Assembly: GCA_963666985.2 (NCBI GenBank) | Contig: CAXXIA010000001.1 | Span: forward strand, 1,184,001 to 1,248,000 | Direction: 5' to 3' | DNA length: 64,000 nucleotides | From: Spirochaetia bacterium | GTDB taxonomy: Bacteria; Spirochaetota; Spirochaetia; DSM-2461 | Shown: in pieces, positions 33,001 through 39,000 of the stretch | Layout of the letters: the number at the start of each line of letters is the position of its first letter | Numbering within the stretch: the first letter of the stretch is position 1 | Made by a program: the position numbers

Positions 33001-36000
33001 AGCAGTATCGACGCGGCGGCCAGCGCCAGGGCGGCCGTGCCGACAATCCACCGCCAGGAGTCAAGATTTTCCTCCAGGATTCGTCCGCAGAGGAGTCCTG
33101 CTGCCAGAGATGCCAGAATGCTGAGCCGAAGACCGAGAGAAATCCTCCCGGCGCGGCGCTCCTCGGGATAAACTTCTCCGTATAAATCGGAAAAGAAGGG
33201 CTGTCTTTGGAAAACCGCCGCGGAGGAGAACGCCGCGCAAACGGCAAAAAGAACTCCCGAATCGGCAAAGGCGGCCGCCGCCAGCGAGAACGCGGACAAA
33301 GCGGTAAGAACAGCGACGATTCTGGAACGCCTGATGCCGCTTCGATTCAAGAATCCCGTCAGCGGCGCCGAAAGAAGATATCCGACGAAATTCGACGCGG
33401 CGATGAGTCCCTTCCAAAAATCCCCGACCGAAAAGAAACCGATGGCCACAACCATGAAGATTGAATCCACCAAAGGCTGAAAGAGTCCGTCGATGGTCTG
33501 CCTGATCGTGTCGATCCGCCAGGCGCGGATTTCATTTGGGCGGACGGCGGACACAGGAGCGGCTTGTTCGTTGGGCACGGGACTTATTCTCCGCGAATCG
33601 GTTCGGATGGGGAAGCGGGCCGGCGGCCGAGAGAACAGAAGCCCTCGTGAGGATACTCAATCATCGCGATTCTGCCGGGAGAAGTTCACCTCGTTCCGAT
33701 CAAACCGCCGCAAAAACGCTCAATACGGAAGGCCCGCCAGTCCGCGAAGCATCCGATCCTGCCTCAGATAGGACAAAACCTCTCCGAGCCGCCGCGTTTC
33801 ACTCGAGAGCACATCAAGCCGGGCGCGGAGCCATTCTTCCTCGCGTCCGTATCCGGACTCCCAGGATTCCTTTGTTTCCGAAGCCCGCCGCATATCGTTT
33901 TCACGGACTTCGGTGTAATAATCGATGTTCTCACGATTCAATTCCATGGAATGCAGTGTGCTTCTGATCAGCGAAACAAGATCGCGGCGGGCCGCATCGG
34001 TTCGCGCGGCGGCGGCTTCGGCGGCGGCCTCGGCGCTTTTGCGCCCCGAAGAAGCCCGGCCGGAATCGAAAAGCGTTGTACTCGCCCCCAGGGTGAGCGT
34101 CCAGGAACCGTCCAAATCATCCGGTTCTCTTCCGTACCCGCCCCCGTAGGCAAACTCACCGCGGAAAACCAGATCCGGACGGCCTATCGATTTCGCCCCG
34201 GCCAGCCCGGCCTGGGCGTTCCGGACTTCTTCAAGGGCCGAAAGCGCTTTTATATCGGTGCTGTAAGCCAACGCCGCCGCGACCAATTCATCGCTTTCGA
34301 AAAGAGTGAAGGATTCAAGAGTCTCGTCAATTTCAGGCAGAACGAGGTTTTCCGGGGTCAGCGTCTCCACATCCGTCATTCGCTCCAGAGAGACAAGAAG
34401 ATCGTTCTCATTGCATCGCAATTGTGAGGAGGAAAGATGAACCTGCCGCCGCTGAGTGCGCGCGCGCCGATACTCGTCTTCCAAAAGGAAGCCCTCTTCA
34501 TAATTCCGCAAAGTGATTTCAACCAGTCTGTCGACCAGCAGCTCCTGTTTTTCCGCAAGCGCGATCATTTCGCGAATAAGACTCAGCGATTCCATCGCAA
34601 CGGTAATATCGGTCGCGAGTTTGTCTTCGGCCGAAACAACCTGCCAGCCGGCGGCCTCGCTTCCCCGCGCCGCCGCGGCGATTCCGGCGGAAATCTTGCC
34701 GGATGTGTACACCGGCTGTTCCAGAACCAAAGAAGCGTCATAGCGGAAATCATTGGCTTTGCCCAGGACTTCGAGATCTTCCGCCGGGAAAGGCGTTCCC
34801 ATGATATCTCCCAGAGAACCGGCTTCTACGCTGAGGATGGGATCGCTGAGATAAGAGGAACCCAGTTCCACTCCGAGTTTCGGCCCGTATTCGGCCTTGG
34901 CTCCCCGGAGCGTTTGAGCCGCCGAGCGGGCTTCGGCGCGGAGTGCGTTGAGCGAAGAATCATGTTCCAGGGCTCGGCGGATAAGAGCTTCGGTACTCCA
35001 GGGAGCGCCGATTCCATCCGCCGCGGAGGCCGGGATGAGCACCTCGGCCGCCGGTTCGTTTTCGGCTCCCTGCATCTCCGGCTTGTCACGGGCCTCCGCA
35101 ACGAAGGGAGCGGCCGGAAAGAGCATGAGGGCGCAGAAAAAAACAACCGGAACGCCGCCGACCGCCGAAGCCTTTTTCAAGAGGCCTCGGCCTTTGGAAG
35201 AGGATTCTTCCCGGTTCGCCGGTTTTTCCTCTTCGGGCGCCGGTGCGGGAACCCCGGTATCGGAAGAAGGTCCGAGGCTTTTCATCGAAGAGGCATGATT
35301 CGAATCGCTTCGGCCTTCGGGGTCATCCGCATCAAATATCGGCTGAAGCACGATTCTCTTCTTTTCCCTGCGCCTCTCCAGATGCTCATACAAAACCGGA
35401 ACCACCACCAGAGTAATCAGCGTCGAGGTGGTGAGCCCTCCGGCGATAACCTGCCCGAGCGGCGCATAGATTTCGGAACCTTCGCCCATGGCGAAAGCCA
35501 GAGGAATCAGTCCGAGAAGCGTTGTCAGGGTGGTGATGAGGATGGGTTTCAGCCGAATCCTCGCCGCATCGAGAATCGCGTCCCGTACGTTCAAGCCTTC
35601 CCGTCTCAAGCGGTTGGCGAAATCGACGAGAACGATGGCGTTGTTCACAACCATGCCTCCCAATGCGATGATGCTGAAGATGCTCATCATGGTAATCCGT
35701 GTTCCGAAGGCCATTTGAACCAAAGCGACGCCGATAAGGACAAAAGGCACCGATCCCATGATGATGAGCGGCTGTGTGAATCGCTCGAACTGAATCACCA
35801 TGACCGCGTACACCAGGAATATCGCGACGCCCAGGGCCACGGCCAAATCCCGGAAGGTTTCTCCCATCACGTCCGCGGCGCCGGCGATGCGCCAGGAAAC
35901 GCCCGGAGGGAAAGAGGCCTTCGCCAAGAGCGGTTCCATACGGGCGCCGACACCGGCCAGATCGTTCTCCGAGAGTTCTCCCACCACGACAATCGACGGA

Positions 36001-39000
36001 AGCCTGTCACGATGCGGGATTCGGTCGGTGGCGGGCCTTCGGTCCAATTGGGAAAAAGCGGCGTAAGGCACCGTTTCACCCGCCGCGTTACGGACTCGGA
36101 TTCTCCCTAAAATCCCATCGGCCAAAACATCGTCGGCCAGAGAGGAATCCACAATCAGCGGATAACTCGCCTCGTCCCCGTCCAGCGTTCCGGCCTGTTC
36201 GCCGGCAAAGAGAATCCGCAGGTTCCGGCCGGCGGACAACGGATCCACGGCCAGCCTTCCGGCGGCGATTTTATCAATATCCACCGTCAGGGATTCCTTA
36301 TCCAAACGCACTCCGAGGGATGCGCGTTCCACAAGGGGATCGGCTTCCATAAGAGCCCTGACGGCCTCGGCGGACTCCAGAACGGAATCCCAATCGGTTC
36401 CGGTGATTTCAATCCGGAATCCCTCGCCTTCGGTGGCATAGGCCAGCTTCTTCGCCAGACCGCCGTTGCGCACCGTGATGTCGGCGTCCATAACCTCGGC
36501 CGGAAGGACCTGATTCAGCCGGCCGATGATTTGAAATACCGATCTTTCCCGCTCGGTTCTCCGTTTCAGAACGACTCTTCCGTATCCGGAGGAAGGATTG
36601 CCGGTATCGATAATGGTCGCCGAATCCCCGATACCGGCGTACCAGAGATCGGTTTTAATTTCCGGAACTTCCCTGCGGACGATTTCGGCAATCTCCTCCA
36701 TCTTCTCTTCGGCGCGGTCCAAGTCGTAACCGGGAGGCAGGTCGCAGTACACTTCGAACTCATTCATATCCGGCATGCTGATCAATTCCCCGCCGAGGCG
36801 GGCCAAAAGCCCCAACGCGGCGGCGGTCAGAAGCAGAGAGAGAATAAGAACGAAGCCTTTTCGGTTTAATGCCGCGTTCAGAAACTTGGCGAAAGCTTTT
36901 GAGATCTTATCGAATCCGGCATCGAACGCCGATCCGAACCGGGCTATGAATCCCTTGCGGTCCCGATCGGAAAGAAGCCGCGAGGAAAGCCAAGGAACGA
37001 TGACAACGGCCGTTATCGCCGAAGAAGAGAGTGCGAAAAGCAGGGTCCAGGATACTTCTTTAAGAATGGCGCCGGCCAGACCGGAAACGAACAGAATGGG
37101 CACGAAGACCGAAAGCGACGTGCTGGTTGAGGCCAGAACCGCGCCTCCCACTTCGTCCGCTCCCAAAGAAGCGGCTTCCGCCGCGCCTTTCCCGAGCCTG
37201 CGGTGCCGCATCGTATTTTCCAGAATAACGACCGATGAATCCACGATCATCCCGATGGAGACGGTCATTCCCGCAAGGGTCATCATATTCAGACTCATTC
37301 CCCTGGCCCGCATCAGGATGAATGTGAGAAAGATGGTAAAGGGAATGGACATGGACACGATTAAGGCCGCCCGAAGGTCGTGCAGGAATAAAAGAAGGAT
37401 CAGAGCGGCGAGTAATCCGCCGAGCCATGCCGAGCGGCCGACCGAAGAGAGCGTGATGCCGATGGTTTCGGCATCGTCAAGAACGGGAACGAAACGAATC
37501 CGGCCGCGGGTTTCCGCCTCAATATCCGCCTGCAATTCCTTTACGGCGGAAATAAGAGTTTCGGTATCCCCGTCCGGCCTTTTCATCACATCCAGAGCCA
37601 CCGTTTTTTTTCCGTTCGAGGAGGCTCTGAATTCGGGATTTTCGCTTCCCATGCCGACGGTTCCCAGATCATCCAGAAAAACAGGGTGCCCGGCCGCGTC
37701 GTATCCGACCGGCTGACTTCCCACATCGGCCAGGCTCCCGTAATCCCCCCGGGACTGAAGAGACACACGATCGGCCCCGATAACGACATCGCCGGCCGGA
37801 ACATTCGCCTGTCCGCGGGCAACGGCCGCATAGGCCTCCAGGGCGGTAATGTCCATGGCTTCAAGTTTCGCCGGATCGAGTCTGATGCGAACCGCGGGCT
37901 TCTCGGCGCCCCGAGCGTAAACGGCCGAAACATCGGCAAGCCGGCTGAAGCGCGGGAGAAAATCCTCATCCAGAACACGGGCCAATTCGCCTTCTTCCAT
38001 ATCGGATTCAACCAGACAGGAATAGACCGGCAGTGAAGATACGCCGAGATCGTAGATTCTCGGACTTCCCGCCAAACCGTCGGGAAGATCCGAGGAGGCG
38101 GCATTGATCCTGTCGCGGATGTCGTTTTTCTTGGCCTCGATATCGGCGTCCCAATCGAGCACGATAAAAATGGTCGAATAGCCGTCGTATGAGTCGGAGC
38201 TGATTTTTTCCACTCCGGAAATAAGGCCGAATGAATCTTCCAGAGGTTCGGTTACTTCCCGTTCCACCGTTTCCGGGGAGGCTCCGGGGTAAACGGAAAA
38301 CACCAGGATTTCCGGCATTTCGATGTTGGCCAATAAATCGCGCTTCATTCCGCGGAACGAAAGAAGGCCGAAAAGGGCCAGGGTTATCAGCAGAATGCCG
38401 ATAATCGCCGGATGCTTAATGGAAAAATCGGCGATTTTCATTCGGAATCGCCTCCCTTTCGGACGAAGGCGGCGCTTCGGCCGGCGCTGAAGAGGTTCTC
38501 GCCGTTCTGTGCGCCGCCTGATTTTGTATCGGCCTCAGCACCGGCGCCGGAGCCGCGGATGTTGTTAGCGGACCGGTTTACATCCGCGAGGCGGATGCGG
38601 CTACCGGCGGCGGCTTCCGAAACGGCCGCATTTTTTTCAGCAACGCCGATCTTTTCTCCGCGGGGAGCCTCCGACTTGGATTCACCCTCCCGATTCAAAA
38701 TCCGCACATCGGTGCCTTCAGAGAGAAAATGCTGCCCCACCGTTACGCAGGTTCGGCCTTCCATGGAGTCGGGCAGAAGAACATACGAACCGATGATGCG
38801 CGCTCCTTCCAGAGCCTGATAGGAGGCTTTGCCTTCGCTGTTCACAAACCAGAATCCCTTCCCCGAAGTCAGCGCCGTGGATGGAAGAGTCAGAACGTTC
38901 CGGCGGACCGAAAGGATGAACCTCGCCGTCATCAGCATGCCCGGCCTTAAGCCGCCGCGGGCTGCTTCATCGGGCGGGATTCGGCAGGTGACGACAAACG

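Follow-up and report, generated by a model that had tools for sequence, protein, structure and literature searches.

The gene at positions 33720..38441 (minus strand) of the window, a 64,000-nucleotide stretch of a Spirochaetia bacterium genome (G000), is a genuine, conserved, in-frame fusion of an RND permease with a TolC-type outer-membrane factor (OMF), the two halves being joined through a signal-peptide-like 13th helix, as the genome-wide survey's note had claimed. The gene probably encodes a two-membrane polyprotein, that is, one chain with an internal signal peptide that would be cut by signal peptidase I into a 13-helix pump and a free channel. From the anatomy described below we infer the membrane topology, the translocation, the cleavage and any benefit of 1:1 synthesis of the two products.

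Organization of the fused gene and its operon

The fused gene comprises 1573 codons and a stop in a single open frame with an ATG start, as previously claimed. Its start overlaps by 4 nt the stop of a gene for a 437-aa periplasmic adaptor (MFP; 38438..39751, minus strand), identified in the profile search by TIGR01730 (158.2 bits against a cut-off of 94.9), HlyD_D23 and HlyD_3, and the adaptor gene overlaps by another 4 nt a gene for a 206-aa TetR-family regulator (39748..40368, minus strand; TetR_N at residues 14-57, 28.5 bits against a cut-off of 24); both upstream assignments of the survey are thus backed by profile matches. Operons of the AcrAB-TolC and MexAB-OprM type likewise combine pump, adaptor and channel with a TetR regulator, each encoded by its own gene, whereas here RND and OMF share one frame and the signal peptide of the OMF is internal. 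The likeness extends to the full-length profile matches of the RND and adaptor proteins and to the TolC fold of the channel half. On the 3' side, an MFS transporter gene lies on the same strand (32361..33578, start codon uncertain; MFS_1, 48.8 bits against a cut-off of 33.4); this neighbor is also found in G008, as judged from a homologous frame that follows the channel part in L033. The same genome encodes an Omp85/BamA homologue and contains three loci whose signal peptidase I matches exceed the curated cut-off, either singly or when added up within the frame.

The RND part (residues 1-1029; 35355..38441, minus strand) matches ACR_tran (PF00873) at residues 3-1019 with an E-value of 1.3e-203, covering profile positions 1-1018 of 1021, which bears out the description of a complete transporter. 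The 12 RND helices and one more, also described earlier, were recovered in a Kyte-Doolittle (KD) scan as 12 hydrophobic segments and an extra one at 1087-1119. The closest solved relative is MdtB (9lyq_B, E 4.4e-98). None of the curated NCBIfam subfamily cut-offs is reached, the best score being 615.9 where 1250 is required. When the RND part is aligned with CmeB/MexB and further RND chains, the relay positions are taken by D401-S402 (TM4), N933 (TM10) and K965 (TM11), so that two residues of AcrB and MexB are missing, the second Asp of TM4 and the Lys of TM10. In the established AcrB topology the RND C-terminus is cytoplasmic; given the full-length match and the 12 segments, the same would hold here, and the chain would end on the right side for a following signal peptide.

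The cytoplasmic linker predicted from the junction alignment (residues 1030-1082; 35196..35354, minus strand) is rich in acidic residues, Pro and Ser. Over residues 1020-1115 the two other frames have two stops each and the coding frame has none, while GC3 at residues 1030-1087 is 0.55 versus 0.65 for the whole gene. The linker had been said to vary between about 20 and 110 aa; it does vary, but the distance from the RND end to the hydrophobic core is approximately 10-25 aa in the four other species and approximately 70 aa only in G000, where the junction alignment shows a linker about 55 aa longer.

The putative internal signal peptide (K1083-A1117; 35091..35195, minus strand) was delimited by hydropathy, charge and conserved anatomy, and consists of an n-region (K1083-K1090), an h-region (A1091-V1114) and a c-region (A1115-E-A1117), with the cut predicted before R1118. 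Of the helix reported earlier at about 1085-1112 and ending in AEA, the AEA motif stands as the small-x-small site A1115-E-A1117/R1118 (the slash marks the cut here and below), and the hydrophobic core is redefined as A1091-V1114. The KD peak of the segment is 2.23-2.77, with a net charge of +3 in the preceding 15 residues. The 14 fused sequences compared, namely P0007, six orthologues for which DNA was available and seven fusions at 28-42% identity, all keep the signal-peptide-like anatomy. Each has a hydrophobic 12-mer of KD 2.05-3.32, and a net positive charge precedes this 12-mer in 13 of them; the exception is G007, where the 15 residues before the core carry a net charge of -2, with an adjacent Arg. 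Small-x-small sites include AEA/RD, LDA/QE, LWA/ED, LGA/EE, LDA/EE, VAA/QQ and similar ones, and were located in 13 of the 14 sequences by an automatic rule and in P0007 (LPA/QS) by eye, the rule being simple and several candidate sites per sequence being frequent. In alignments with the unfused orthologues P0008-P0010 and L044, this segment coincides with their N-terminal signal peptides.

The mature OMF part (residues 1118-1573; 33723..35090, minus strand) contains two OEP (PF02321) stretches, in line with the two repeats proposed before, the best being 1384-1568 (132.6 bits against a cut-off of 22). The NCBIfam TolC model TIGR01844 spans 1154-1548 with an E-value of 1.4e-17, under its curated cut-off. 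The channel half has no sequence-level match in the PDB; its AlphaFold2 model (pLDDT 83.3, pTM 0.73) has TolC chains as the best Foldseek matches (E 3.9e-18 to 1e-16, TM approximately 0.7). In this model, a flexible 30-residue N-terminus is followed by a TolC-type fold from W1148, which starts a 36-residue helix that rises to meet the first barrel strand, with 67 residues in the longest helix; hence the folded N-terminus is predicted to lie about half-way up the periplasmic barrel. With this TolC fold and its beta-barrel strands, the channel must leave the inner membrane.

Maturation of the predicted polyprotein

In the proposed pathway, the TetR-adaptor-RND::OMF operon would yield one 1573-residue precursor, in which the 12 RND helices would insert with both ends cytoplasmic, the basic K1083-K1090 stretch would stay inside, and A1091-V1114, as helix 13, would enter the Sec translocon in N-in/C-out orientation. 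The 456-residue channel part would then be threaded into the periplasm and released by signal peptidase I after A1115-E-A1117, while the signal peptide would remain on the pump permanently as its 13th helix. Once free, the channel would pass to the BAM machinery, trimerize in the outer membrane and dock on the complex of adaptor and RND in the usual manner of tripartite pumps. Cutting one precursor into pump and channel would make their protomers 1:1, and this ratio matches the 3:6:3 stoichiometry of tripartite RND complexes. We know of no RND protein for which translocation of some 450 residues after 12 helices, with export competence kept for BAM, has been shown.

A precedent for the general layout is Bradyrhizobium japonicum FbcH, a cytochrome b/c1 precursor that, reportedly, is cut at an internal signal peptide. 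There too, a single frame encodes first a polytopic inner-membrane protein with a cytoplasmic C-terminus and then, behind a signal peptide, an exported protein that belongs to the same complex. The splitting of FbcH by the signal-peptide machinery is said to be proven by experiment, whereas cleavage of the RND-OMF precursor is predicted from sequence; furthermore, both FbcH products stay at the inner membrane, while the second product here must travel to the outer one.

The survey's note had offered two alternatives, a polyprotein cut after helix 13 and a single chain reaching from the inner to the outer membrane, and had also raised a separate OMF made from an internal start. The first alternative fits the topology, the small-x-small sites and the lack of conserved internal starts. 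Production of the channel mainly or partly from an internal start on the same mRNA, with the loss of the RND stop being tolerated and the read-through fusion minor or irrelevant, is the strongest competitor, although we consider it unlikely. Candidate starts are present in G008 (GGAGG, a 6-nt spacer and an ATG right before the signal peptide, MARSGKSDRF...) and in G000, where the in-frame TTG of L1088 (35178..35180, minus strand), with GAGG 4 nt upstream, may be a residual channel start and would give a textbook signal peptide (M-KKASAVGG...AEA); a GTG occurs in the RND tail of G006, and the ancestral arrangement, as seen in L044, had a start at exactly this place. In these two genomes, G000 and G008, some channel could be made separately. 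However, the starts are not conserved: G007 has ATA at the codon of the G008 ATG, in G005 the stretch from the RND end to the hydrophobic core contains neither ATG nor GTG nor TTG, and in L043 the sole such codon is a TTG within the RND tail, without a spaced Shine-Dalgarno. In addition, any internal site would be traversed by ribosomes already translating the RND part, the frames are in register and free of stops, despite differing linker lengths, in all six orthologues with junction DNA and in the contig of a second study, and divergent fused families exist in other lineages.

An uncleaved chain, a covalently locked pump with 13 inner-membrane helices and a C-terminal TolC-like part in the outer membrane, appears very improbable. 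The continuous frame would allow it, and in G000 30 residues lie between the predicted site and the start of the fold, but this tether has only 5 residues in G007, G008 and L043, 7 in G006 and 11 in G005. From the level of W1148, the first folded residue, about half-way up the modeled barrel, the inner membrane is well over 100 Å away, given the rest of the barrel, the RND periplasmic head and AcrAB-TolC dimensions. With a tether of 5-30 residues, the uncleaved chain therefore fails on geometry; moreover, the same segment is an ordinary N-terminal signal peptide in the unfused orthologues. Since a single inner-to-outer-membrane chain is unsupported, so is the earlier suggestion of a 'stoichiometrically locked' pump.

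Conservation and soundness of the assembly

The in-frame junction is found in 5 of the 14 genomes of the genus (G000, G005, G006, G007 and G008), rather than the four reported previously, as well as in one metagenome contig and the contig of the second study. The G008 gene is split over contigs, the ends of which read the same junction except for one residue, and in a sixth genome, G004, the contig with the orthologue ends before the junction. Two independently assembled contigs, which may derive from the source sample, match 34600-35800 with no differences and no gaps. Along 34603-35330 the contig of the other study differs by 16 substitutions, without gaps, the linker being free of indels, and it continues beyond this region into a diverged 279-nt stretch of equal length; among the 13 substitutions listed, 8 are synonymous and 5 non-synonymous, and neither stops nor indels occur. 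Purifying selection acts on both halves, with dN/dS of about 0.14: between G007 and G008, the values are 0.139 for the RND part (724 codons), 0.146 for the channel (440 codons) and 0.325 for the junction (42 codons). Least credible of all, accordingly, is an artifactual frameshift, from sequencing or assembly, or an operon that broke recently and is decaying into a pseudogene: the unusually long, lower-GC3 linker of G000, a T7 run nearby and the possibility of long spurious open frames in high-GC loci (L062) might point that way, but the identical sequence in two further assemblies, the same-length junction in the contig from a different study, the occurrence of the fusion in five species of the genus and a metagenome contig, the dN/dS values of both halves, their full-length profile matches and the confident TolC-fold model of the channel all argue against it.

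Origin and recurrence of RND-OMF fusions

Unfused orthologues in the same clade are represented by L044, P0008, P0009 and P0010, together with the RND protein P0011, the separate-gene status of P0008-P0011 being taken from called proteins and that of L044 from DNA; fused and unfused orthologues form one clade with 100/100 support. In the metagenome locus L044, the RND gene ends in ...RIKGAVK-TGA and the TGA overlaps the channel ATG (ATGA) in a different frame, with AAAGGGGG upstream of this ATG. The fusion probably arose from such an operon of adaptor, RND and OMF genes, where a small indel within the overlap would be enough to bring both frames into register. Unfused channels are 44-49% identical to the channel half of G000; unfused P0008 is 70-71% identical to the fused channel halves of G007 and G008, to which the fused G000 half is only 50-51% identical.

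The survey's cluster search had returned only the protein itself and one 1505-aa protein, a result that reflects the reach of that tool rather than rarity, since other searches returned many. Both ACR_tran and OEP were present in 21 of the 30 nearest ESM-Atlas clusters (at least 50 members each; 63-348 in the five listed) and in 8 of 14 long proteins checked, at only 28-48% identity, while a second fused family, that of P0129, had both domains in 12 of 12 matches. On a 43-row RND tree, built by a quick method and with 21 rows of deviant composition, the fused state changes at least six times, a minimum forced by well-supported branches, with a count this low in none of 500 shuffles, unfused states in the trees resting on called protein lengths except for L044. 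RND-channel fusions thus occur in many divergent lineages. In agreement with the survey's impression that such fusions are undescribed, our literature search yielded no paper describing a natural RND-OMF fusion, including, in the parts consulted, PMC8277102 and PMC4827864. Besides the P0129 family, the other fusions include MCG8454101.1, TVR29433.1, P0012, P0013, P0020, P0021, P0051, P0071 and P0129, and the full-length members have 1502-1605 aa. Their layout is that of the gene described here, with ACR_tran leading to basic residues, a hydrophobic stretch, a small-x-small site and a pair of OEP repeats, but their identity over the query is only 28-42% and they fall into different branches of the RND tree beside unfused proteins, except MCG8454101.1 (P0006, the G005 orthologue), which is 48% identical over the query. 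In the source annotations these proteins appear as RND permease, HAE1 exporter, TolC or hypothetical.

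Gene architecture and the two halves

The gene under study (g01074) is one frame at 33720-38441 (-), with an ATG start and 1573 codons. Pfam profiles assign its product an ACR_tran domain at residues 3-1019 and, within the C-terminal third, two stretches of OEP, and the NCBIfam models agree in layout, with RND permease models spanning residues 5-1023 and a TolC model residues 1154-1548, no curated subfamily cut-off being reached. Adaptor and TetR genes lie upstream with 4-nt overlaps, and the adaptor (MFP) gene, which overlaps the fused gene itself by 4 nt, matches TIGR01730 with 158.2 bits against a cut-off of 94.9. 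The adaptor protein extends past this match (residues 45-351) by some 85 C-terminal residues of low complexity (residues 352-437; 38438-38696 (-)). Downstream of the fused gene lies an MFS gene (32361-33578 (-)), which follows on the same strand both here and in the genus genome G008 (L033:2-646 (-)) and may share a transcription unit with the fused gene. Promoter-like and terminator-like sites were no commoner than in shuffled controls (2 versus 3.7 +/- 1.8 and 17 versus 14.2 +/- 3.9, respectively); among the latter is a hairpin with a T run inside the signal-peptide coding region (35142-35166 (-)). A foreign island was rejected, the operon GC of 0.56-0.59 lying inside the window range of 0.40-0.59 and resembling that of the 12-16 kb region.

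The ACR_tran (PF00873) match of the RND part is full length (profile positions 1-1018 of 1021; 679 bits against a cut-off of 28), and the nearest solved RND structure is MdtB (9lyq_B, E 4.4e-98). From the hydropathy scan alone, 12 transmembrane segments are predicted in a 1+5 / 1+5 arrangement (about residues 5-34, six within 333-555 and five within 862-1019) with two large periplasmic loops at 35-332 and 556-861, and a 13th segment follows at 1087-1119. The proton relay of AcrB consists of an Asp-Asp pair in TM4 (D407/D408), a Lys in TM10 (K940) and an Arg in TM11 (R971). In our alignments, where D407-D408 of MexB were located by counting along the alignment, the first Asp is kept as D401, the second is replaced by S402, and N933 and K965 stand for the TM10 Lys and the TM11 Arg; thus, AcrB/MexB-type pumps have Asp-Asp, Lys-Asn and Arg where the fused protein has D401-S402 (37236-37241 (-)), N933-N934 (35640-35645 (-)) and K965 (35547-35549 (-)). 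Because these residues differ and every curated NCBIfam RND subfamily cut-off is missed, assignment to the AcrB/MexB-type HAE1 pumps was rejected and the RND part is placed, from its sequence, in an uncharacterised subgroup of RND permeases, for which the TM4, TM10 and TM11 residues suggest a different proton relay. Inspection by eye of distant fusions in protein databases found a single TM4 Asp, with a non-acidic residue next to it and Ser behind that, in all five examined (P0012, P0013, P0051, P0071 and P0129), and Asn-Asn in TM10 in the three examined for it (P0012, P0051 and P0129).

The channel half matches the OEP profile (PF02321) in two repeats with 132.6 bits against a cut-off of 22, and its matches to TIGR01844 and TIGR01845 fall under their cut-offs. 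Since a PDB sequence search with this half gave no match at E <= 0.001, the fold was tested by modeling. An AlphaFold2 model computed from a 16-row alignment of channel halves (A1) reached a pLDDT of 83.3 and a pTM of 0.73 and has helices and strands in the same order as in TolC. The top 44 Foldseek matches of the model are all chains of outer-membrane factors (OMFs), with TolC chains ranking best (E 3.9e-18 to 1e-16, TM ~0.7; TMq 0.74), followed by OprM, CusC, CmeC and VceC. An OprM/NodT-type lipoprotein was also considered: C1103 sits mid-helix in VVFFC, outside any lipobox context, and the aligned segments of four genus genomes (G005-G008) and of the fused metagenome locus L043 contain no Cys, so this reading was rejected for lack of conservation.

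The junction and its probable processing

Read from the DNA, the junction runs from the RND tail, ending ...VPVLYEHLERRREKK, through a linker of 53 residues (1030-1082) rich in acidic residues, Pro and Ser, a basic stretch (K1083-K1090) and a hydrophobic segment (A1091-V1114) to A-E-A1117|R-D. This is the n-h-c anatomy of a signal peptide, placed 1082 residues into the chain, with the AEA site ahead of the mature channel domain as the cut site predicted from sequence. An extra linker of about 55 residues (35196-35354 (-)) is found, among the compared sequences, solely in this genome (G000) and in a related contig assembled in a second study (runs X3/X4); in the four other fused species of the genus the RND tail passes into the hydrophobic segment nearly without a spacer. 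GC3 is 0.55 across residues 1030-1087 versus 0.65 for the whole gene, and the linker may derive from what was once a long RND tail or from spacer DNA that was recruited.

We compared 14 fused sequences, comprising six orthologues with DNA, the database protein P0007 and seven distant fusions. All 14 keep a hydrophobic 12-mer (KD 2.05-3.32), the preceding 15 residues carry a net positive charge in 13 of them, and a small-x-small site follows the hydrophobic core in every case (13 by the automatic rule, P0007 by eye). The hydrophobic segment also aligns with the signal peptides of unfused orthologues. The succession of 12 helices, basic stretch, hydrophobic core and small-x-small site is the layout of an internal signal peptide, and the even number of helices fits N-in/C-out insertion. 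The RND C-terminus is cytoplasmic in the topology of AcrB, and therefore the basic stretch and hydrophobic core would insert N-in/C-out, as an N-terminal signal peptide does. Given this topology, the signal-peptide anatomy in 14 fusions, the alignment with unfused signal peptides, the scarcity of internal starts and the processing genes of the genome, which has homologues of signal peptidase I as well as an Omp85/BamA protein, the product is probably a polyprotein that signal peptidase I cleaves behind A1117. The signal peptide would stay on the pump as a 13th helix, and the released channel would move on to the outer membrane. In the Bradyrhizobium cytochrome b/c1 precursor FbcH, a signal peptide that lies inside the chain and is cleaved comes after an inner-membrane protein; to our knowledge, FbcH is the closest precedent for this arrangement.

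The channel might instead be translated separately from a start inside the fused gene. Such a start is strong in G008, which has an ATG with GGAGG at the expected ancestral start position, and in G008 only: the codon is ATA in G007, no credible internal start is found in G005, G007 or L043, and those in G006 and G000 are weak. The G000 candidate is a TTG at residue 1088, which may be used in addition. If, on the other hand, the chain stayed uncleaved, it would have to reach from the inner to the outer membrane, and the channel model argues against this. Its first ordered residue, W1148, opens a 36-residue helix that runs on to the first strand of the barrel, while the longest helix of the model has 67 residues, and this geometry would place the channel N-terminus about half-way up the periplasmic barrel. 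From the predicted site to this Trp there are 5 residues in G007, G008 and L043, 7 in G006, 11 in G005 and 30 in G000, a tether too short to bridge both the remaining barrel and the periplasmic head of the RND part, the dimensions of which are known from AcrAB-TolC structures. The gene would not offer structural studies the covalently locked pump that the genome-wide survey's note had hoped for.

An assembly artefact or a decaying gene is opposed by the junction DNA, since 34600-35800 recurs with 0 differences in two further assemblies, possibly from the source sample, and the linker is open in the frame of the fused gene alone, the other two frames having 2 stops each across residues 1020-1115. 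Against 34603-35330, the second-study contig shows 16 substitutions and no gaps, followed by a diverged 279-nt stretch of equal length and then by 35610-35800; the 13 listed substitutions comprise 8 synonymous and 5 non-synonymous changes and 0 stops. Both halves appear to be functional genes; dN/dS between G007 and G008 is 0.139 for the RND part (724 codons), 0.146 for the channel (440) and 0.325 for the junction (42). A search for RNA data sets that contain the junction listed none.

Relatives and origin of the fusion

Orthologues whose RND parts are 62-69% identical were found in G004-G008 among the 14 genus genomes. G005, G006, G007 and G008 have the junction in frame; in G008 the gene is split across contigs, the ends of which read the same junction bar one residue, and in G004 the contig stops ahead of the junction. 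The remaining 8 genus genomes contain paralogues only, with 33-35% identity. A search of 38 family and order genomes with the channel half limits long frames (>1000 aa; a frame cut by the contig end in G008) to five genomes, G000 and G005-G008, and an OEP-profile search found them in G000, G005 and G007 only, among the 150 of 277 matches listed. The nearest unfused channels within the family (~30% identity) stand in a different gene order, TetR-OMF-adaptor, and are therefore uninformative on the origin of the fusion. Three OEP matches lie in frames of 805, 599 and 592 aa (G033:C53:18061-18675, G029:C1:5579072-5580268 and G027:C185:13871-15067), compared with about 450 aa for usual channel genes.

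An exhaustive profile-free search with residues 850-1573 identified stand-alone channel proteins of 471-481 aa with their own Met and signal peptide (P0008-P0010), which in alignment A1 share 44-48% identity with the channel half of G000. In the channel-half tree, the five fused sequences group with the three unfused ones in a single clade (100/100), the interior of which is unresolved. P0008 is 70-71% identical to the fused G007 and G008 halves; G000 is only 50-51% identical to the same halves. A scan of the genome contig collection with the channel half and a metagenome contig scan with P0008 returned no relative. A metagenome scan with A1 yielded 38 loci, including two orthologues at 49%. 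One of them, L043, is fused, with a 960-aa frame cut by the contig end. The other, L044, is unfused: its RND gene ends ...LYEWSEERRERIKGAVK-TGA, the TGA shares its first bases with the channel ATG (ATGA), and AAAGGGGG lies upstream. The unfused state was read from DNA in L044 only and elsewhere from called proteins. A small indel at an overlap of the ATGA type is enough to bring the RND and channel frames into register. Two further loci, L062 (1-3036) and L056 (2754-4583), were rejected as fusions, the frame upstream of their Met-led channel genes being an Arg/Pro-rich wrong-frame read in high-GC DNA; at such loci the 'open_frame_aa' value by itself can mimic a fusion.

Spread and meaning of the layout

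The impression of uniqueness given by the genome-wide survey's note is not upheld: ACR_tran and OEP are combined in many clusters and in divergent proteins, and the RND-OMF fusion layout is widespread in sequence data. In the ESM Atlas, both domains occur in 21 of the 30 nearest clusters, each with at least 50 members (63-348 in the five listed), and the few taxon labels name Planctomycetota and Bacteroidota. The best 150 representatives in the search with residues 850-1573 include 11 proteins longer than 1300 aa; of 14 long proteins scanned (those 11 and three of 1181-1300 aa), 8 combine the two domains and 6 do not. The 8 include two GenBank MAG proteins with the label Spirochaetales/Spirochaetaceae, for which the only name given is 'efflux RND transporter permease subunit' or 'hypothetical protein'. 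With the P0129 channel part as query, 12 proteins were returned, all with both domains. Three RND proteins of 1360-1509 aa (P0039, P0060 and P0122) have C-terminal extensions of 300-450 residues in which neither OEP nor any further Pfam domain shows up at E <= 1e-5.

A maximum-likelihood tree built by a quick method from 43 RND parts (11 fused and 32 counted as unfused from their called length) requires six or more changes of the fused state, a minimum forced by well-supported branches. One might speculate that the fusion was selected and is not a neutral accident, which we regard as unlikely. According to this scenario, in species lacking a usable internal start the channel would arise solely as the C-terminal end of its own pump, every RND protomer would free one channel protomer beside itself and so seed a matched 3:3 pump, the signal peptide, left uncut, would act as a functional 13th helix like the small accessory helix protein AcrZ, and the at least six state changes in unrelated RND lineages would reflect a recurrent advantage of coupled two-membrane synthesis.

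The suggestion that no natural RND-OMF fusion has been described stands, as a full-text literature search found no description of one. None is described in the available text of a 2021 review of tripartite pumps (PMC8277102), and the same holds for the available text of a 2016 survey on pore families of the outer membrane (PMC4827864), in which fused porins are listed. The product appears to be, by prediction, an ordinary tripartite pump in function, encoded and assembled through an unusual layout that seems not to have been described in print. If the precursor is processed as proposed, it would be a bacterial polyprotein with two products in different membranes and a natural test case for the way in which the Sec translocon deals with a long exported domain behind a 12-helix protein. 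It would also reveal how an outer-membrane barrel precursor is handed over from an intermediate tethered in the inner membrane, and would test the benefit of 1:1 synthesis for tripartite-pump assembly. Annotation pipelines name the fused proteins just RND permease or TolC, and these single-function labels skew genome counts of pumps and channels. The fusion itself is direct genetic evidence for the pairing of channel and pump, that is, of which serves which.
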